Shown here: positions 11,694 through 61,221 of the stretch, piece after piece
Layout: every line of letters starts with the position of its first letter
Numbering within the stretch: position 1 is the stretch's first letter
Source: an uncultured Gammaproteobacteria bacterium
GTDB lineage: Bacteria; Patescibacteriota; Microgenomatia; Levybacterales; UBA12049
DNA: 64,000 nt
Assembly (NCBI GenBank): GCA_965230895.1
Contig: OZ246394.1
Span: 833,955 to 897,954 of the forward strand
Direction of reading: 5' to 3'
Notes under the pieces: model-generated
Told to the model about the DNA's origin: nothing
The model's input: the letters and a program-made list of their open reading frames with translations, nothing else
Databases searched by the model: none
Program-made: the position numbers and the translations under genes

Positions 11694-14600
11694 CTAAAGG
11701 TTCTTAATATTTATGTTTAATTGATCGGGTTCACCCTTACCGCTTAGTGGTTTTAGGAAGAGTTCTCCAGTATCATCTTTATATATATCTACACCAGATT
11801 GTTGACCTTTAAGATCGTGGATATCAAAGCCTGCTTTCTTTAGCATTTCTATTTCTCCTGAGTTTAATCTCTTCATTTGTGCAGATGCGTTAATTGCATC
11901 AGTTGCATTAAGAATTTTTCCTGCTTTAATTCCTTTTGCTGCAAGTTTAACTTCGCCAAATATAAAGCTTGCACCAATATCAAAACCCGCACCTCCTTTG
12001 TCAGCTAAACTTGAATTTGGATTTCTTAGAGTATTAACAGCTTCTCTATATAATGAGTTATATATTGCTGTAGCTTGTGGTTTTAATACATCCCTTCCTC
12101 CACTCGTATCTTTCTGAGGCTGATTGTTACCTGCACCTGTATTGTAAACGCTATTGTTAATGGAACCATTTTGAATAGATTTTGTCACAACCACATAATT
12201 ATAATAAGTTGCTGTAGTAGGCTTTTGATAATACGCATTCAAAGCTTGATTATATTTAAGAATTTCGTTCACATGTCCAGACGGATCAGTGTACTTAACA
12301 GGATTATTTTGGACATAGGAATAACTATTTAACGTTTGTGGCTCATATACGTTTTTTACAACAAGATCTGGTTGCGTAAACCTCCTCATGTCTGAACTAT
12401 AGTATCGGGCATTATAATAATTCAGTCCTGTCTCACTATCCTTCTCCTGTCCTGTATATTGGAACTTACTCTTCCCTCCACCAGACTTCACCACACCCCA
12501 AGGATCATATGAAGTTTCTTCAGACACAGATCCTCCAGAGTTAGTTAACAAACTCGCAGATCCGAGATGGTCATTTTGATAGTAGAACCTGTTACCACTG
12601 TTATCTCTCTTTGAAAGAAGCTCTCCATTGACCCAGTAATATGCAGTATTCTGTGCAGAACCTCCTACTGGAGTCTTGGTCTCATATCCATCACTCCATG
12701 AGACCACAGTATTTGCGAGAGTCCCAGTGACATAATTCTTCTTCACCATACGGAGACCGTTGTAGTCATAGACATACTCAGCAATAGTATGACTGTTCCC
12801 ACACTCTTTAACTTTAGACAACTGATTTGCTTCATTATATTCATAACATTTCGTCCCATCAGACGTTAAATTCCCATTCGCATCATACGCATATACTGGA
12901 TGCCAGACATTGAAATTATCAAATATTGCTGATGTTGTAGAGGCTTCAGAACTCCATGTACCTACTTGCTGACCGACAATCATCGATGACACAGGGAAAG
13001 GATTGGCGACAGATGCGAAATTACTCCATGTTCCACCATCAGCTGAAGTATCAAAGTACGTCGTACCAGCTGATTCACGTATGCGGAACCATTTATGGAC
13101 AGCTGGATTATAATCATCCTGTGCCAACCAATTAGATGTGCCATTTACTTTTTTGTACGCTCGGATCTTATTTTCTCCGATAAAGAAGAAGAATTGGTTG
13201 GAATTATCTCCATCGACAATGGTGTAGAGTGGGAAGACTTCCCATGAACCTAATGATTGATTCCCAGCATTCACTACCTGCGTAACCACTGAAGAGTTCG
13301 TAAGGTTGTATGCATTACTACTATCAATGCCATAATATCCACCACCTGCGTTACTTGTCGCTGTGAATTGCTGTGCAGAAACAGTCGCGTTGCTTCCACC
13401 CCAGTTCACCCATCTTCCACTATCTATACTTCCCGTACTCCAGTCGTCTACCAAAGTAGCAGTCGGTGCACTCGCATAATTGAAATTATCAAATGTTGCA
13501 CTTGTCGTGGATCCTTCGCTACTCCATGTACCGACTTCTGAACCGATAACCATTTCTGTCACAGCAAATGGATTTGCAACTGATGCAAAATTTGTCCATG
13601 TCGTGCCATTTGCTGAAGTATCAAAATACGTTGTGCCACCAGATTCTCGGATACGGAACCATTTGTGGACTGCAGGATTGTAGTCATCTTGAGCAAGCCA
13701 ATTAGAAGCACCATTTACTTTCTTGTATGCACGAAGCTTGCCCTCTCCGATAAAGAAGAAGAATTGGTTGGAGCTATCGCCATCAATATATGCATATATC
13801 GGATAGACTTCCCAGGATCCGATGCTTTGATTGCCTGCATTGACGACCTCATTGACGATTGAAGAACTCGTCAGATCATACAACTTACCATTTACATCAC
13901 TATCAACTCCATAATATCCACCGCCTGTTGTACTTGTCATTGCAAGTTGATTGCTAGAGACTGTGACTTGTCCACCACCCCAAATATTCCACTTCGTACT
14001 ATTAATAGTCCCAGATGACCACGTGTCAAAAAGTGATGATGTCAAAGGTGTACCAGATCCATTTACATGAGGAGGAGCTACTTTCTCAGTTGACGAAGTC
14101 ATCGCATGGACTTTGCCGTTGGCACCATATCCATAATCAGTATCTACTCCACTATCAGTGAATTTAGTCAGATTACCAATGGAGCTATACTGATATGCAT
14201 AATTGTATCCTGCGGATTCTGAAGCAGTTTTTAGTCGATCAAGATCATCATAGGTAAATGTCTGCGTTTTACTATCTACTGCATCTGTAATACTTGCAAC
14301 GTTACCCACATTATCATAGGCATAGTTCAAGTCTTGCAGACTGCTTGTCTGAATTCTATTTAATCGGAAGTCATTGGTATTGTATGTATAATTCGTCGTT
14401 AATCCATTGTTGAAATTCTTCTGTGTAATCTTCCCCAACGCATTGTAATTCACATTGCTGACGACATTACTGACCGATTCAATCTCTCCCTGATTATTGT
14501 ACGTATTGGTAATAACTTCACTGTCAGGATTTGTTTGTGTTCTGACTCGATCCATCGGATCATACGCAAATTGTGTCGTCTTGGTGACACCACCGACAGT

Positions 14601-17600
14601 TCTGGCTTCCGCAGTTTTGCGAAGAAGATTGTCATAGGTGTAGGAAACACTTCCCGCAGCATCAGTCACACTCGTTAATGTCCCTTTCCTGCTATTCCCA
14701 TCATAGGTGTAGACGACATCAGTATTTGTAGGATAATCTGTCTTCTTGAGTCGATTAATCTCATCATAGGTCTTTACAACTTGCACATCTCTGTTGTCGG
14801 TTTGTTTTGTGAGATTGCCCACTGCGTCATATTCATATTCCCACGTTCCCATGTCAGGATCAGTCATAGATGTTTTACGACCCAAAGCATCATAGGTAAA
14901 AGTAATATCATTGTCTTCATCGTCTGTAATTTGCATTAATAAATCTCGTGAATCATATGCATATGTTGTTTCATATGTTGCTGCGTCATTTACTTCCTCA
15001 ACTTTGACAATCTTATCGAATGCATTTTTATATTCTTTCTTTACGTTACCATTTTCATCAGTTGTTGTTTCTTTCCAGTGGTCATAGGCAATTGTTTTAT
15101 TGTCACCTTTTGGATTGGTAATTGTTACAGGTCTTCCAATTGCATCATATGTTGTTTGTGTATTTCGGATACCACTTAATGGATTTCGATAATAATCATA
15201 GCTATCATCTTCATGTGGAACAGTCACTTTATTGACTTGCCCAGTCGAATCATAATAGGTATTTGTCACGATTTGTTTTGCTGAGGATGTAGCTTCTGCT
15301 TCTGTTCGTGTCGAAATAGTTCGTCCCAGTCCGTCGATCCATGTATATGTATCAAGCGTTGCAGAGGAAGAACCAGTATTTTCTTTCTTTGAAACAAGTG
15401 TCCCATCTACTCCAGCGGTGTAATAGGTGTATTTTGTTGTTGGATAGGTACTGTTATCACCTGGTTTTATCTCTTTGGTAAGCCTTCCATAGACATCATA
15501 TTCATAATCTGTGGTATTACCATTTGGATCAGTTTTGTAGAGAAGATTTCCGGTTCCCAAATCATAATGGACATAGGTTTCATGGTCTTTAGCGTTCATG
15601 CTAAAAGTAGGATATGTTCCTGTCGTATCATAATTTGTGTATGTATAATGTCCATTCGCGTCCTCAACTTCTGTCTGATTTCCAAAAGAATCGTACGTGT
15701 AATTTGTCGTCGGATCGGTCGTAAACAAACCATCAGTCCACTTTACTTCTTTGGTCAAATTACCTTTTGATGGAGCATCACCTAATCCAGAATGTGAATC
15801 ATAATAGAATGAAGTTTCACTTATTTTTGTCGAATCATTTGATGCTTTGAGTGTCGTCTTTTTGGCTGTATTGACGATCCAATCAGTTGTATTGTACGTA
15901 TATTCATTATATGTATAACGCTCGTCCCCACTAACTCCTGTGTCTCCCAATTCAGATTTCTTTGTCACGTTGCCATAACTATCATATTCAAAGTTTGTTT
16001 GCTTTATCTTTGGATTACTAGCTGAGCCATCATAGGTTAAGATTTTCTCTTCTGTTTGTTTCGTCACGGTTACACCATTTGTCGTTGTATAACTCCATGT
16101 TGGCTGCGTCTCACGATATGGATTGTTTGAGCTATCACGTTCTTGCAGCTCACTCAACTTCCCTGTAAGCGTTTCATATTGATGGAAGACATATTTTTTC
16201 TTTGATCCATTTGGCTCAACTGTATTGACGATAGAAAATCCCTGGAACTGTTTAAGATTATGGTCATAAAATCCATCTTGATAACTATATGTTGTGACAT
16301 CATTTGTTTCTTGATCATTGTCCAAACCGTTATTGACAGTCATTTTAGAAACAACCCATACAGGGAAAGAGAGATCAGATTTACTGTCACTACCCGTATT
16401 GTCATAAATTGTTGATGGCTTATATTCAAAATTAACTACTCCGCCTCTATCTGTTGTTACTTGTTTAAGAAGATGAGGAGCATTTCCGTTATTTTTATAA
16501 ACCTTCCATGATGAAAAATCTCCCTTCACAATATCAGGGAGCCCATCACCAGTAACATCAGTCAATTTTGTTTTATTATCATTAGCATTTATATCAACAT
16601 TTGCAGAATACTCTATCCAATTGTCCCATTGATCTGTCCAATGATCGCCCCTACTGACGAGAACCTTCCATCTATCAGCTCCACCTGGATCCTGATTTTC
16701 GTTCCTGACAATATCAATAAGCCCATCCCCATTAGCGTCAGATATTGTCGATTGAGGCTCTTGGAAATGTGCATTGACGGAATAATCAAGCCATATTGTA
16801 AAGCCCCTGAACCCGCTACCAGTATTGAGCCAAACATACCACGTAGCCCAATTGCCATCGTAAACAGTACGGACAACATCTGATATACCATCATTATTTA
16901 CATCAATCAAACGTACTTGAGGACTTCCAAGTCCTGCTGGCATATTTGTTCCATCAACCCAAACATCACGAGTAGTACTCCAACCTGATCCAGTATTTTT
17001 AAATACTTCCCACTGATAACCTCCGTTATTTGCTTTTGTATGGACGATATCAGGAAGTCCATCTCCGGTCATATCAGCTAAAGTGACATCATTCTCTCGA
17101 AGTTTTATAGATCCATCAACACCACTAAGATTCGTCCAATTTTCAGCTGTAGTATTCCAACTAGTACCAGTATTCCTAAATACTTGCCATACATCTGCAT
17201 CAGGAGAACGAACAATATCCGGTAAATTGTCCCCTGTTACATCAATCAATCGTACATACGGAGTGAATTGTGGATCCAGTCCAGCATTTATACCAGCATT
17301 AGTCACCCAATTTGTCCATTGAGTTGGCCATGAGGTTCCCGTATTTATTAAGACTTTCCATGTAAAGTTAATACCTCCATTAAAATCTGTTCCAACCACA
17401 TCCATATAACCATCACCATTTACATCTGACAAAGTGACATTATCTTGCCCTAAATTAAGATTTATATCTTGATTAATCCATGTCTCAGGCGTGGCATTCC
17501 AGCTTCGAGGCTCATTATTATATTCGAAAGAGGTGGTTAAGTAATTAGATCTATCATCGCCTTTCTCAATTATAGAAGTTAAAAGTGGTTGATTACTGAA

Positions 17601-18491
17601 AGTCGGTGTGTAATTCAAATCATACTCTCTGACAAGATCCTCTCCTATGTATACTTCTATATTGTCAAGATTATTGGGATCAAACATGTAACAACCTTGA
17701 ACGAACACTGGACGTGTATAGCCATGTGCAGGGTTGGAACTTCCACTATCTACATAATGAAATTTGATAATACGGGATTGATCGTTGTTATATTTGATTC
17801 TTTCCAGATAGGACCACCCATACGTCTCACCATATGTATAATAAATCTTATTACTATTGGTATCTGTCACAAGGTCGAGATTCCACATGGTAACAAAATC
17901 ACGATCATTACATTCTCGTTCTGATTGCGATTCATAACCGAAACGGTACTTCGTCCCATCTGGTGTGGTCACAACCCAATACTCACCTTTGACATTAGAC
18001 CCCCCAGTAAGCTTTTGAATTTTCAAATAAGATTCTATCTTTGTATGGTACAAACCGTCTGAAGATACATACACAAGTTCATATACCGCACCTTTGAAAT
18101 ATAATTTAAATTTATCATCGCTTGTATTGGTCGGAGTTCCGTTAACGTCACGCTGAATATACTGCTGGTTTAGAAGCCATCCAATACCAGAGTTCATTTT
18201 CATATCCCTCAAACCTGTACTACTATAATTTATTGAAACTTCAGGTGTTAGATCATTGGTACCTTTTGGAACTTTTATTGGATAAGAATAATTCGCAGAA
18301 CCAGTAAAGATATCAGTCGTAAATCTATCACGTTGATATTTTGGTTCTGTAGTATTTTGGATAGAATAATCAGCAAGTATATCACCGCCCCCAGAAAAGA
18401 GAAGAGCAAAAGAACCAAGGAAACCTAAAGCTAACTTTAATTTAAACGAATGCATATGGTAGTAGGGACAGCTACTATCGATACTCAACAC
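11694..18491 (-). CDS. secreted RHS/YD-repeat polymorphic toxin, TcB/TcC-fusion-like, with SpvB-type N-domain, FG-GAP-like repeats, YD shell, RHS core and a variable C-terminal toxin domain
   Basis: Signal peptide, with the probable ATG start at 18455. SpvB-like GSANYSYPIKVPKG…INYSS…GIGWLL, then six or more DxxGDGxxDxV repeats. Dozens of YD repeats follow (YTYDALGRKT, YEYDAVGNLT…). The core ends in NPVKYTDPSGH (~12273), followed by an unassigned ~190-aa tail. Confidence 0.85.
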   Translation of the reverse strand: MLSIDSSCPYYHMHSFKLKLALGFLGSFALLFSGGGDILADYSIQNTTEPKYQRDRFTTDIFTGSANYSYPIKVPKGTNDLTPEVSINYSSTGLRDMKMNSGIGWLLNQQYIQRDVNGTPTNTSDDKFKLYFKGAVYELVYVSSDGLYHTKIESYLKIQKLTGGSNVKGEYWVVTTPDGTKYRFGYESQSERECNDRDFVTMWNLDLVTDTNSNKIYYTYGETYGWSYLERIKYNNDQSRIIKFHYVDSGSSNPAHGYTRPVFVQGCYMFDPNNLDNIEVYIGEDLVREYDLNYTPTFSNQPLLTSIIEKGDDRSNYLTTSFEYNNEPRSWNATPETWINQDINLNLGQDNVTLSDVNGDGYMDVVGTDFNGGINFTWKVLINTGTSWPTQWTNWVTNAGINAGLDPQFTPYVRLIDVTGDNLPDIVRSPDADVWQVFRNTGTSWNTTAENWTNLSGVDGSIKLRENDVTLADMTGDGLPDIVHTKANNGGYQWEVFKNTGSGWSTTRDVWVDGTNMPAGLGSPQVRLIDVNNDGISDVVRTVYDGNWATWYVWLNTGSGFRGFTIWLDYSVNAHFQEPQSTISDANGDGLIDIVRNENQDPGGADRWKVLVSRGDHWTDQWDNWIEYSANVDINANDNKTKLTDVTGDGLPDIVKGDFSSWKVYKNNGNAPHLLKQVTTDRGGVVNFEYKPSTIYDNTGSDSKSDLSFPVWVVSKMTVNNGLDNDQETNDVTTYSYQDGFYDHNLKQFQGFSIVNTVEPNGSKKKYVFHQYETLTGKLSELQERDSSNNPYRETQPTWSYTTTNGVTVTKQTEEKILTYDGSASNPKIKQTNFEYDSYGNVTKKSELGDTGVSGDERYTYNEYTYNTTDWIVNTAKKTTLKASNDSTKISETSFYYDSHSGLGDAPSKGNLTKEVKWTDGLFTTDPTTNYTYDSFGNQTEVEDANGHYTYTNYDTTGTYPTFSMNAKDHETYVHYDLGTGNLLYKTDPNGNTTDYEYDVYGRLTKEIKPGDNSTYPTTKYTYYTAGVDGTLVSKKENTGSSSATLDTYTWIDGLGRTISTRTEAEATSSAKQIVTNTYYDSTGQVNKVTVPHEDDSYDYYRNPLSGIRNTQTTYDAIGRPVTITNPKGDNKTIAYDHWKETTTDENGNVKKEYKNAFDKIVKVEEVNDAATYETTYAYDSRDLLMQITDDEDNDITFTYDALGRKTSMTDPDMGTWEYEYDAVGNLTKQTDNRDVQVVKTYDEINRLKKTDYPTNTDVVYTYDGNSRKGTLTSVTDAAGSVSYTYDNLLRKTAEARTVGGVTKTTQFAYDPMDRVRTQTNPDSEVITNTYNNQGEIESVSNVVSNVNYNALGKITQKNFNNGLTTNYTYNTNDFRLNRIQTSSLQDLNYAYDNVGNVASITDAVDSKTQTFTYDDLDRLKTASESAGYNYAYQYSSIGNLTKFTDSGVDTDYGYGANGKVHAMTSSTEKVAPPHVNGSGTPLTSSLFDTWSSGTINSTKWNIWGGGQVTVSSNQLAMTSTTGGGYYGVDSDVNGKLYDLTSSSIVNEVVNAGNQSIGSWEVYPIYAYIDGDSSNQFFFFIGEGKLRAYKKVNGASNWLAQDDYNPAVHKWFRIRESGGTTYFDTSANGTTWTNFASVANPFAVTEMVIGSEVGTWSSEGSTTSATFDNFNYASAPTATLVDDWSTGSIDSGRWVNWGGSNATVSAQQFTATSNAGGGYYGIDSSNAYNLTNSSVVTQVVNAGNQSLGSWEVFPLYTIVDGDNSNQFFFFIGENKIRAYKKVNGTSNWLAQDDYNPAVHKWFRIRESAGTTYFDTSADGGTWSNFASVANPFPVSSMIVGQQVGTWSSEASTTSAIFDNFNVWHPVYAYDANGNLTSDGTKCYEYNEANQLSKVKECGNSHTIAEYVYDYNGLRMVKKNYVTGTLANTVVSWSDGYETKTPVGGSAQNTAYYWVNGELLSKRDNSGNRFYYQNDHLGSASLLTNSGGSVSEETSYDPWGVVKSGGGKSKFQYTGQEKDSETGLNYYNARYYSSDMRRFTQPDLVVKNVYEPQTLNSYSYVQNNPVKYTDPSGHVNEILKYNQALNAYYQKPTTATYYNYVVVTKSIQNGSINNSVYNTGAGNNQPQKDTSGGRDVLKPQATAIYNSLYREAVNTLRNPNSSLADKGGAGFDIGASFIFGEVKLAAKGIKAGKILNATDAINASAQMKRLNSGEIEMLKKAGFDIHDLKGQQSGVDIYKDDTGELFLKPLSGKGEPDQLNINIKNL
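12910..14065 (-). repeat. tandem in-frame duplication (2 x ~570 bp) inside the RHS gene, encoding two ~190-aa β-sandwich/lectin-like modules
   Basis: ccgataaagaagaagaattggttgga occurs at 13177 and again at 13747. The protein copies SGTINSTKWNIWGGG…FFFFIGEGKLRAYKKVNG…TFDNFN and SGSIDSGRWVNWGGS…FFFFIGENKIRAYKKVNG…IFDNFN are ~70% identical. Confidence 0.8.
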
Positions 18492-57642: not shown

Positions 57643-59880
57643 TTAAATATATTTACTTGTCAATGAATTCTTTGCTTCTTTGAGATCTTTTGGAGTTCCT
57701 TCGAACATTACTTCCCCACCTTTATGGCCACCTTCAGGACCCATATCGATGATCCAGTCAGCATTTCTTATAACATCCAAATTATGCTCGATCACAACGA
57801 CAGTATTTCCTGCATCAACCAAACGATTCATAATAGTGAGCAAATGCTCAATGTCACTCATGTGCAGACCAGTTGTCGGTTCGTCCATCACATAAATACT
57901 TCCCTTTTTGTGGAGTTCACTCGCCAATTTAATCCTTTGGCATTCTCCACCAGATAATGTATTTAATGGTTGCCCCAATTTGATGTATGTTAATCCTACA
58001 TCGTTCATCGCCTGCAATTTCTTCTTCACTTCTTTCAGTTCAAAGAATTCTAAAGCTTCAACGACAGTCATATCCAGAACATCTGCAATGGATTTACCAT
58101 GCAGTTTGTATTCCAACACTTCATCTTTAAATCGTTTTCCCTGGCAAATGTCACATGGTGTTTTAACTCCTTCAAGAAATGCCAAATCTGTATACACAAC
58201 TCCTTGACCCTGGCAGTTCTCACAAGCACCTTTGGAATTGAAACTAAACAATCCCGGTTGCACTTTATTGGCATCTGCAAAAGCTTTGCGGACATCATCC
58301 ATAATTCCAGTATACGTTGCTGGATTACTTCGTGAATTTGCGCCAACTGCTGATTGGTCGATGACAATTGCATCAGGATGTTGTTTGAGGAAGACTTGAT
58401 GAATTAAGGAACTCTTACCGGATCCTGCAACCCCTGTGACAGCGGTTAAAATACCTGTTGGGATATCTACACTAACATCCTTTAAATTATTTGCCTTTGC
58501 ATTTTTGATACTCAATGCTCCAGTGGCTTTTCTAAAAGAATCTTTAATTGGCATCTGTTGATTAAGATGCGTCCCGGTTAATGTATCTGATTTGAGAAGC
58601 TCTTCCAAGCTTCCTTCGAAGACAACTTTTCCACCACCACTTCCGGCTTTTGGTCCGACATCAATGACATGATCTGCGACTTTGATAACATCTGGATCAT
58701 GTTCGACGACGATGACTGTGTTTCCTTTGTCTCGAAGCTTCTTTAATAAATCGTTTAAGCGATGAACATCCCGAGGATGAAGACCAACACTTGGTTCGTC
58801 AAAGATATACATGACATCGATCAGACTTGAACTCAAATGCTTCACCATTTTTATACGCTGTGATTCTCCACCGGATAACGTATCGGTTTCGCGGTTCAAA
58901 CTCAGATATCCCAAACCAATATCCACAACATGCTGCAGGCGCTCTTTCAAAGTCTTAATCATTGATTCTGCCATTGGCTCATCGATCTTTTCGACTTCTT
59001 TGATCAAATCTCCAACTTCCATTGCAGCAAGTTCTGCAATATTTTTGCCGTTAATTTTAGATGCTAAAACCTTTTTATTAAGACGAGCTCCATGACACTC
59101 GTTACATGGACCATATTCGAGATATGGAGCAACTGCTTTCTGTGTTCTTTCAGAAAGTGTTTTTAAATCTCTTTTGATGTATGAACGAGTAAGCTTTTCG
59201 ATAATTCCCAAATATGTAGCATTCATAGTATTGCTTCCAATTTGTAATTTAAACTTTCTGTCTTTTCCATTCATAAGAAGATCCATTTCTTCTTCGGTAA
59301 AGTCTTTCAGCTTTTTGTCATTATCAAAGAAACCTGATCCTTTATATGCTTCTTTTTCCCAACCAGAAAAGAGAGGAACTTGTATAGCATCTTCATTAAG
59401 AGATTTTTCCATATCTAGGAAGCCTGCAGTATTAAACTGAATTTTCTTTCCCAATCCATTACATTCAGGACACATTCCTTGTGGATCGTTGAATGAATAA
59501 ACATTGGAGAAGCCAGCAGATGGATGACCAACTCTCGAAAAAAGTAATCGAAGGATCGTGTAAATATCAGTGATCGTTCCCATTGTAGAATGAGATCCAC
59601 CACCCATTCTTTTCTGGTCAACCATAATTGTCATACTGAGGTTTTCAATTGCATCCACTTCAGGTTGAGAATACTTCGGGAGGAAGTTGCGGACGAACAT
59701 ACTGAACGTTTCGTACTCTTGTCTCTTTGCTTCAGTTGCAATCGTGTCAAAAACAATTGAAGATTTTCCACTTCCTGAAACTCCAGTAAAAATATTGATT
59801 TTGCGCTTTGGGATCTGAAGAGAGATATCTTTGAGATTATTTTCGCGCGCACCTTTAAGGACGATGTATTCTTGATTCAT
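57643..59880 (-). CDS. UvrA-family ABC ATPase, short (class II-like, 745 aa)
   Basis: Two ABC cassettes with zinc-finger insertions (CPECNGLG, CENCQGQG). The protein is ~200 aa shorter than canonical UvrA. Confidence 0.9.
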   Translation of the reverse strand: MNQEYIVLKGARENNLKDISLQIPKRKINIFTGVSGSGKSSIVFDTIATEAKRQEYETFSMFVRNFLPKYSQPEVDAIENLSMTIMVDQKRMGGGSHSTMGTITDIYTILRLLFSRVGHPSAGFSNVYSFNDPQGMCPECNGLGKKIQFNTAGFLDMEKSLNEDAIQVPLFSGWEKEAYKGSGFFDNDKKLKDFTEEEMDLLMNGKDRKFKLQIGSNTMNATYLGIIEKLTRSYIKRDLKTLSERTQKAVAPYLEYGPCNECHGARLNKKVLASKINGKNIAELAAMEVGDLIKEVEKIDEPMAESMIKTLKERLQHVVDIGLGYLSLNRETDTLSGGESQRIKMVKHLSSSLIDVMYIFDEPSVGLHPRDVHRLNDLLKKLRDKGNTVIVVEHDPDVIKVADHVIDVGPKAGSGGGKVVFEGSLEELLKSDTLTGTHLNQQMPIKDSFRKATGALSIKNAKANNLKDVSVDIPTGILTAVTGVAGSGKSSLIHQVFLKQHPDAIVIDQSAVGANSRSNPATYTGIMDDVRKAFADANKVQPGLFSFNSKGACENCQGQGVVYTDLAFLEGVKTPCDICQGKRFKDEVLEYKLHGKSIADVLDMTVVEALEFFELKEVKKKLQAMNDVGLTYIKLGQPLNTLSGGECQRIKLASELHKKGSIYVMDEPTTGLHMSDIEHLLTIMNRLVDAGNTVVVIEHNLDVIRNADWIIDMGPEGGHKGGEVMFEGTPKDLKEAKNSLTSKYI

Positions 59881-59909: not shown

Positions 59910-60266
59910 TTATTTTGAAGAGGTTTCTTTTTGCCAAGGCCAGCGACCTTCAATTTCCATATCAAAAGTTATACTGAGGAATGAACGGATTACCACAATC
60001 ACAGCTAAAACCCCTACGCTTGTAAAGCTTGGCTCTCCAGTAACAGAACGGATGATATCTCCTGCAACAAGGAATTCTAATCCAAGCAGAATACAACGAC
60101 CAAGATTCTTTCTAAACGATTTATAAAGAAATGTATAGGATTTACCGTCAAAGAATTCTATCCCTACAAGTATTATTGATGCTACAACTCCGACGATAAT
60201 GACAAACACACCAACTAAATCTAATATTTCTCCTGCTATTTGGGCTAAAGCTAATGGATCAAACAT
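59910..60266 (-). CDS. DUF1622 family membrane protein
   Basis: MFDPLALAQIAGEILDLVGVFVIIVGV… pattern; start at the ATG with a GAGGAC SD. Confidence 0.5.
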   Translation of the reverse strand: MFDPLALAQIAGEILDLVGVFVIIVGVVASIILVGIEFFDGKSYTFLYKSFRKNLGRCILLGLEFLVAGDIIRSVTGEPSFTSVGVLAVIVVIRSFLSITFDMEIEGRWPWQKETSSK

Positions 60267-60333
60267 AAAAGTCCTCACTATTAAGAGTGGCAAAGAACAG
60301 CAATTTTGTCAAATAGAACTGAGCAAAAAGATT

Positions 60334-60520
60334 TTGGATTTGCGGAAACATGTGGTATACTGGATGTACTCCAAAGGGGAGTAACTGACGATCACTTGAT
60401 CGGAGATAGAATCAACATCACGAACACTGGTTCTATCAGCTAATTTTAGCTCCAGCCAGACCTTTGGCCTATTTTCGCATACGCGAGAAGATGAGGCCGA
60501 AGGTTTTTTTGTTTTTAACC
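60334..60520 (+). ncRNA. candidate sRNA or cis-regulatory leader with promoter (TTGGAT-16-TATACT) and strong intrinsic terminator, upstream of the zinc-ribbon gene
   Basis: Several hairpins (UACUCC/GGAGUA, GAUAGAAUC/GGUUCUAUC, AGCUAA/UUAGCU) followed by ACCUUUGGCC-N25-GGCCGAAGGU and UUUUUUUGUUUUU. Confidence 0.4.
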
Positions 60521-60566
60521 CCACAGCCTCATTAATACATTCTTACTATGAAAGGAGGTGATACAC

Positions 60567-60821
60567 ATGAAATGTCCAGTAGACGGAGCAGAACTAAAAG
60601 TATCTGATCGCGAAGGAGTCGAAATCGATTATTGTCCAAAATGTCGTGGGATTTGGTTGGATCGTGGAGAGCTCGACAAAATTATCGATAGATATGACGG
60701 CGGCAACATGAACGATGAGGATGATCGTCGTGGTGGTCGTAGAAACAATCGAAACGATGACGATGAAGAAGGCGGATTTTTGGGTAATATATTCGGCGGA
60801 TTCGGAGGTCGTGACGACTAA
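60567..60821 (+). CDS. TFIIB-type zinc-ribbon protein with Gly/Arg/Asp-rich tail
   Basis: CPVDG…CPKCRGIWLDRGELDKII (zf-TFIIB-like) and SD GGAGGTG. Confidence 0.6.
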   Translation: MKCPVDGAELKVSDREGVEIDYCPKCRGIWLDRGELDKIIDRYDGGNMNDEDDRRGGRRNNRNDDDEEGGFLGNIFGGFGGRDD

Positions 60822-60873
60822 TAAAATATTTTTATGTCCGGTGCTGGTAGTGTATTGTTATCAGCACCGGATA

Positions 60874-61221
60874 TTATTTCCAGCGAGAAGTTACTTCTTC
60901 TTCTGACGAAACAAATAAATAATCTCCCTGCTTATTACTTTCATAAATAAATGCCTTTAAACTCTCACTCTTATATTTTGAAAAGTCACCGATAATTGCC
61001 AAGCGAACATGATAGTTACTAAATTTCTGCAAAACATCACCTAATTTCTTTGTACTTAGGTCAAAGAAGTCTTTTCCGAAATTGTACTCATGAAGAATAA
61101 TGAAATCAGAAGATGCACTTGCCATAATATCTAATGCGTCGTCAGTATTTGAAATTAAGACATCTTTTGAAGTAACTTCACATATTTCAACACCATGGTT
61201 ATGGATAACTCTCATGTCCAT
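60874..61221 (-). CDS. DUF4180 family protein
   Basis: …DALDIMASA…IILHEYNFGKDFFDLSTKKLGDVLQKFSNYHVRLAIIGDFSKY…FIYESNK matches my recollection of DUF4180. Confidence 0.5.
   Translation of the reverse strand: MDMRVIHNHGVEICEVTSKDVLISNTDDALDIMASASSDFIILHEYNFGKDFFDLSTKKLGDVLQKFSNYHVRLAIIGDFSKYKSESLKAFIYESNKQGDYLFVSSEEEVTSRWK

Follow-up and report, generated by a model that had tools for sequence, protein, structure and literature searches.

What kind of RNA precedes the small zinc-ribbon gene at position 60,567 of the window (the whole 64,000-nucleotide stretch of DNA analyzed here), and what might it sense? A preliminary description of this DNA had placed a promoter in the intergenic region, followed by a transcript of about 150 nt with several clean hairpins and an intrinsic terminator, and had proposed either an independent small RNA or a transcription-attenuation leader, belonging to no RNA family that could be named. 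The window probably derives from a member of the Patescibacteria (CPR); its Lon protease shares 94% identity with a protein named Candidatus Levybacteria, 88-90% with Candidatus Saccharimonadales and 84% with entries of the Patescibacteria group. We examined the region by Rfam searches, folding, alignment of orthologous leaders and comparison of gene neighborhoods.

A structured leader lies between a promoter and an intrinsic terminator

Both hexamers of the proposed promoter were found on the forward strand: a -35-like TTGGAT at 60334-60339 (+) and a -10 hexamer TATACT at 60356-60361 (+), separated by a 16-nt spacer. The first is weak, and TTGATT occupies the -35 position in the closest orthologue (L085). 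Because only three of its six positions match TTGACA, the promoter is absent from the output of a simple consensus scan, and the call therefore rests on a conserved extended -10 element, TGGTATACT (60353-60361, +), with its TG at 60353-60354. In six orthologous leaders the pattern T-x-TG-x-TA-x-A was invariant (T60351, T60353, G60354, T60356, A60357 and A60359 in the window), and the extended -10 was separated by 6-8 nt from a conserved ACUCC that marks the start of the element. Transcription is predicted to begin around A60368, about 7 nt past the extended -10.

The RNA that would be made from this promoter is strongly structured. The minimum free energy (MFE) of the 158-nt leader was -55.5 kcal/mol, compared with -33.3 +/- 3.8 kcal/mol for 200 dinucleotide shuffles (z = -5.9), none of which folded as well. 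At its 3' end lies an intrinsic terminator (60458-60516, +) composed of a stem (60458-60470/60494-60506), an upper hairpin (60472-60489) and a U7GU5 tract (T7 G T5 in the DNA, 60504-60516, +). The 10-bp arms read from the sequence are ACCTTTGGCC (60460-60469, +) and GGCCGAAGGT (60495-60504, +). A simple terminator scan did not list it because the internal hairpin, in place of a short loop, makes the loop exceed the limit of the scanner. About 50 nt further on is the zinc-ribbon gene (60567-60821, +; ATG at 60567), preceded by a strong Shine-Dalgarno sequence, AAAGGAGGTGA (60551-60561, +), that is invariant in six orthologues. Its 84-aa product matches the TFIIB-type zinc ribbon of Pfam (PF13453, Zn_ribbon_TFIIB) over residues 2-42 with 70.1 bits against a cut-off of 22 (E = 9.7e-20). 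The promoter, the structured leader, the terminator and the gene that it precedes were thus all as first described. A coding explanation of the region was rejected: open reading frames at 60306-60443 (+) and 60309-60524 (-) overlap the leader, but indels of 1 and 2 nt in the loops of the orthologous leaders leave no reading frame conserved across it.

The leader matches the Mn2+ riboswitch family below its gathering score

A scan of the whole 64-kb window at the Rfam gathering scores gave no match, and it is because this default scan returns nothing that the element appears unannotated. When positions 60200-60650 were scanned by E-value, RF00080, the Mn2+ riboswitch family (yybP-ykoY), matched 60364-60534 over its full length (model positions 1-177 of 177) with 37.6 bits and an E-value of 8.5e-9; the next-best matches in this region had E-values of at least 1. 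The NiCo (czcD) and M-box Mg2+ riboswitches are also leaders that sense metals and combine multi-helix junctions with a terminator platform (PMC6754395), but neither these nor T-box or protein-dependent attenuators found Rfam support between 60200 and 60650 even at E <= 10, and the conserved loops of the element are those of yybP-ykoY.

The score of 37.6 bits falls below the RF00080 gathering score of 45, and the orthologous leaders score 27-36 bits. In the same copy of Rfam 15, the validated leader of E. coli K-12 mntP (L181:2462-2558) obtained 41.6 bits, also below 45, and the E. coli alx leader (L182) was not reported for RF00080 at E <= 1. Thus, the gathering score of this copy fails to set true members apart, and by this comparison the score of the window element is one that a genuine member could have. 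Since the gathering score excludes even mntP, Mn2+ riboswitches are probably under-annotated in divergent lineages such as the Patescibacteria. The RF00080 consensus as printed in this copy of Rfam 15 shows no P1 base pairs.

The aptamer is conserved in sequence and structure

The yybP-ykoY class is defined by two coaxial legs on a four-way junction, P1.1-L1-P1.2-P2 and P3.1-L3-P3.2-P4 (PMC12153347). An adenosine in L1 makes a cross-helix A-minor contact, an adenosine in L3 contacts Mn2+, and P1.1 is the switch helix (PMC12153347, PMC6649816, PMC6754395); the metal-contacting bases of L3 are a C and an A, the latter being A41 in L. lactis and A48 in X. oryzae (PMC6649816, PMC6754395). All these parts can be assigned in the window, where the RF00080 match, the aptamer-only MFE, pairing statistics and the covariance model R1 described below place a four-way-junction aptamer at 60370-60468 (all coordinates in this paragraph are on the + strand). 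A weak closing helix, P1.1 (CCAAAGG/CCUUUGG, 60371-77/60461-67), is the counterpart of the switch helix. It is followed by L1, with GGAGUAA (60378-84) as its 5' strand, in which A60380 is the A-minor adenosine by alignment, and CCAGA (60456-60) as its 3' strand. P1.2 (60385-87/60453-55) and P2 (60389-93/60398-402) complete the first leg. The second consists of P3.1 (60405-11/60431-37), L3 (UCAACA, 60412-17), P3.2 (60418-20/60428-30) and P4 (60438-43/60446-51); within L3, A60414 would be the Mn-contacting adenosine, an assignment by homology and alignment only.

We aligned seven leaders (those of the window, L085, L170, L171, L173, L174 and L178) with MAFFT and wrote the four-way junction onto the alignment by hand. 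They share the core ACUCCAAAGGGGAGUA(A/G)CU ... GAUAG..UCAACA ... CUAUC ... CAGC(C/A)AGACCUUUGGCC, followed by the terminator. Aptamer-only folding gave the four-way junction with P1.1 in all seven. Standard pairs filled 93.5% of the pair cells, compared with 22-48% when the 3' partners were slid by 1-3 columns. Four pairs, located in P2, P3.1 and P3.2, change on both sides, and the covariation score was reached by one of 500 shuffles. The fold is conserved, with covariation, across these homologous loci. When mntP and a held-out locus (L183) were added, 19 of 32 pairs changed on both sides, 94.9% of the cells were paired and none of 500 shuffles did as well, in an alignment that is model-fitted and so favors the structure. 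Within the CPR set there is no variation in P1.1, L1 or L3, and covariation in P1.1 therefore comes solely from the comparison with mntP; the least-supported helix is P3.2, which has 3 bp in the window and is 82% paired. GGAGUAA (60378-84) and CCAGACC (60456-62) do not vary among eight CPR lineages and correspond to GGAGUAG and GAGACC of mntP, and the eight CPR sequences share UCAACA with one another and with mntP.

The relationship with mntP also holds in the reverse direction. When two regions of E. coli K-12 were scanned with a covariance model built from the seven CPR sequences only (R1), the aptamer in the mntP 5' UTR (L181:2464-2574) was recovered at full length, with 38 bits, an E-value of 6.7e-8 and all six helices aligned. 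In this alignment GGGGAGUAG, GUCAACA and GAGACC of mntP stand opposite GGGGAGUAA, AUCAACA and CAGACC of the window. The alx aptamer, a three-way junction, was matched in its 5' part only (11 bits), and the held-out L183, outside the training set of R1, scored 80 bits. The mntP leader thus has the same six helices in the same order, with L1 as GGGGAGUA(G/A), L3 as UCAACA and a 3' strand AGACC, but its P2, P3.2 and P4 are longer, its gene encodes a Mn2+ exporter and its control acts at translation and through Rho (PMC12153347, PMC11647493), whereas the window element has an intrinsic terminator. With the full-length match to RF00080, the recovery of mntP by the reciprocal model and the presence of all the conserved loop nucleotides, the earlier statement that this RNA matches no known family has to be given up.

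Aptamer and terminator are mutually exclusive folds

P1.1 and the terminator share a strand: CCUUUGG (60461-67), the 3' side of P1.1, is contained in the 5' arm of the terminator stem (60458-70), and all seven leaders that were folded keep this overlap. In the MFE structure of the full leader the terminator was formed and P1.1 was lost, again in 7/7, so the two folds exclude each other. The terminator itself varies by lineage: in L171 it is without the upper hairpin and has a 10-bp lower stem, and in L174 and L178 it uses a different 3' arm while still drawing on the P1.1 strand. The full-leader MFE also contained an alternative hairpin near the 5' end, UACUCC/GGAGUA (60367-60383, +), which sequesters the 5' strand of P1.1 together with L1; it was found for the window and for four of the six other leaders. 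ACUCC is kept in six of the seven leaders and replaced by AUUCC in the seventh, with no covariation. Judging from these folding models, the hairpin may be part of the terminated OFF state. The ability of a conserved ACUCC at the 5' end to pair with L1 in such a state is a feature known here from CPR sequences.

In the published transcriptional mechanism of yybP-ykoY elements, Mn2+ docks L1 on L3 and stabilizes P1.1, which blocks invasion by the terminator strand and permits read-through (PMC6754395). B. subtilis yybP/ykoY, L. lactis yoaB and the X. oryzae element are ON switches of this kind, in which Mn2+ stabilizes P1.1 against the terminator (PMC6754395). Since the platform in the window matches this mechanism, the element is expected to switch the zinc-ribbon gene on when Mn2+ is high. 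Transcription would start near 60368, and the first ~100 nt would fold as the four-way junction. With Mn2+ abundant, the ion would be bound between L1 (GGAGUAA) and L3 (UCAACA), the two helical legs would dock and the weak P1.1 would be stabilized; CCUUUGG would then be unavailable to the terminator, and RNA polymerase would read into the zinc-ribbon gene. At low Mn2+, CCUUUGG would pair downstream in the strong terminator, the 5' strand of P1.1 and L1 would form the ACUCC/GGAGU hairpin, and a terminated leader of ~150 nt would be released. Taken together, we conclude with high confidence that the leader is a riboswitch of the yybP-ykoY (Mn2+) class that acts by transcription antitermination.

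The leader accompanies the zinc-ribbon gene in eight lineages

By exact-protein look-up, we gathered metagenome contigs that encode close orthologues (56-76% protein identity) of the zinc-ribbon protein. In 8 of 13 such loci, whose other neighbors differ, the riboswitch immediately precedes the zinc-ribbon gene in the same orientation; it is absent from the remaining five (L001, L176, L177, L179 and L180). Genes for Mn2+ homeostasis, namely MntP, TerC, P-type ATPases and YybP, are typical of the class. In three riboswitch loci (L174/L175, L178 and L183), a TerC gene follows the zinc-ribbon gene on the same strand. It encodes 306 aa and begins ~65-85 nt past the zinc-ribbon gene (L174:2501-3754, L178:2501-3778, L183:746-2012). 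TerC (YkoY) is one of the two targets after which the class is named, and a TerC-family gene likewise lies downstream of the B. subtilis ykoY element (PMC8632737). The arrangement suggests a two-gene Mn-responsive operon of zinc-ribbon protein and TerC under riboswitch control in three lineages. Compared with the members in Firmicutes and Xanthomonas, the window element differs in its lineage, Patescibacteria/CPR, and in having an 84-aa PF13453 zinc ribbon as the product of its first and only predicted target gene.

Some of the loci without a riboswitch have other metal-related neighbors. In one (L180:1759-2767), VIT1 immediately precedes the zinc-ribbon gene and has the same orientation; CsoR-like, DUF305, HMA and P-type ATPase genes lie downstream in another (L179:2501-5291), and a convergent MgtE gene adjoins in a third (L177:2501-3778). 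Among the matches listed in a protein-based survey of GTDB genomes and JGI metagenomes, mostly from alphaproteobacteria and actinobacteria, the element was absent from all 160 distant family loci; the best GTDB match of the zinc-ribbon protein among those listed is a Patescibacteria MAG. A neighbor census of 80 distant family loci revealed no dominant partner gene; genes related to cations were merely scattered, with raw counts of FTR1 and ArsR-type (three each), P-type ATPase and CorA (two each), and TerC and a Na/Ca exchanger (one each).

These neighborhoods bear on the nature of the signal. The same fold and the same antitermination could serve another divalent cation, such as Ca2+, Fe2+ or Co2+, or alkaline pH. 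Riboswitch-less close orthologues adjoin VIT1, MgtE or CsoR/copper-ATPase genes, as just described, and the regulated gene encodes neither a known Mn2+ transporter nor any other known Mn2+ protein. In vitro, the specificity of class members for Mn2+ is reportedly not strict, and the mgtA element of S. pneumoniae responds to Ca2+ as well (PMC6649816); for E. coli alx, coupling to pH is reported (PMC13594968). Against this, the validated mntP aptamer has the same L1 and L3 as the window element, down to the adenosine homologous to A41/A48, and TerC, a Mn-linked target, would be co-transcribed in three lineages. We therefore regard a signal other than Mn2+ as improbable.

The constant position of the element bears in turn on whether it could act in trans. 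The promoter-to-terminator unit is strong, and its OFF state would yield a terminated leader of ~150 nt, which might be a stand-alone small RNA for which control of the downstream gene is incidental. However, in eight lineages with otherwise differing neighbors the element is always the immediate 5' neighbor of the zinc-ribbon gene and shares its orientation, the nucleotides conserved in it are precisely the ones that characterize a cis-acting aptamer class, and no single-stranded region complementary to a target stands out; a trans-acting role is very unlikely. Of the two possibilities raised in the preliminary description, the attenuation leader is thus the one favored by the overlap of the P1.1 and terminator strands in 7/7 leaders, and the independent small RNA gained no specific support. 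The empty Rfam gathering, simple promoter and simple terminator scans might be taken to indicate a chance or non-functional fold of AT-rich intergenic DNA, but this we consider already refuted by the conservation data, given the folding z-score of -5.9, the RF00080 E-value of 8.5e-9, the compensatory changes and R1 scores of 80-117 bits in eight lineages, the held-out locus included, whose proteins are 58-75% identical.

A Mn2+ riboswitch remains the preferred reading, and what it adds to present knowledge can be stated briefly. The yybP-ykoY class is described as ubiquitous. Both the aptamer and the terminator platform are canonical for it, and knowledge of the class itself is unchanged. The new points are limited to an instance missed by standard annotation, the occurrence in Patescibacteria, a target gene not reported before and a possible 5' hairpin of the OFF state; no paper found in our literature searches connects yybP-ykoY with either zinc-ribbon proteins or Patescibacteria. 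For the element itself, which default Rfam annotation misses, a known mechanism and a probable ligand can now be assigned. This provides a concrete candidate regulatory circuit for a CPR genome, in organisms whose regulation is little known.

The putatively regulated gene encodes a widely distributed small zinc-ribbon protein

An alignment of the orthologues shows a ribbon with CxxD and CxxC knuckles, a helix, a low-complexity linker of Asp, Glu, Arg and Asn, and a conserved C-terminal GGFLGNIFGGFGG. The CxxD form of the first knuckle occurs in 113 of the 120 best homologues, across several phyla, which rules out that it is specific to the riboswitch-linked proteins. Of the 120 nearest homologues, 76 carry G-F-[LI]-x-x-[LI]-F as a C-terminal motif. 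The subfamily is one of uncharacterized, widely distributed small proteins: NCBIfam has no model for the zinc-ribbon protein, and for a related 82-aa protein of known structure (PDB 8yoz, E = 9e-14) a literature search found no paper. An AlphaFold2 model made from a 29-sequence alignment had a mean pLDDT of 54.8, which made it unsuitable for a fold search.

For genes with no assigned role, control by a riboswitch is among the few hints at function. In the present case it connects a small zinc-ribbon family of broad distribution with Mn or other metal stress and, physically, with TerC. From the riboswitch control and the TerC linkage, our best guess is that the protein takes part in responding to Mn2+ excess, either by buffering or chaperoning the ion or by assisting TerC. 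By extension, and more tentatively, the small PF13453 subfamily with CxxD...CxxC, an Asp/Glu/Arg-rich disordered linker and a C-terminal GFLxNIFGGFG might be an unrecognized effector of Mn2+ excess, either a cytoplasmic Mn2+ buffer/chaperone or a partner of a TerC-type exporter, and in some Patescibacteria the sole direct output of the riboswitch.

In the window the zinc-ribbon gene is followed by a convergent DUF4180 gene. Between the two lies a 17-bp hairpin at 60834-60874 (no strand assigned; MFE -25.8 kcal/mol, z = -5.7), which by its predicted fold is likely to be a bidirectional terminator that closes a monocistronic unit. A similar CCGGTGCTGG sequence is found 3' of the orthologous gene in L001. 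On the other side of the leader, a gene for a small DUF1622 membrane protein (59910-60266, -) diverges from the riboswitch promoter, an arrangement kept in L085 and not in the other riboswitch loci. Beyond it, a gene at 57643-59880 (-) encodes a 745-aa UvrA-like double ABC ATPase, which may be a UvrA paralogue; its match to the UvrA DNA-binding domain reaches 22.9 bits against a Pfam cut-off of 23.2, and the gene is syntenic in L081 and L085. ARAGORN detected no tRNA genes in the 64-kb window. The window also contains a giant ORF of 2265 aa (11694-18491, -) and encodes several glycoside hydrolases (GH5, GH18), and the exact zinc-ribbon protein is found on a contig of 1.6 Mb, which is large for a Patescibacteria genome.
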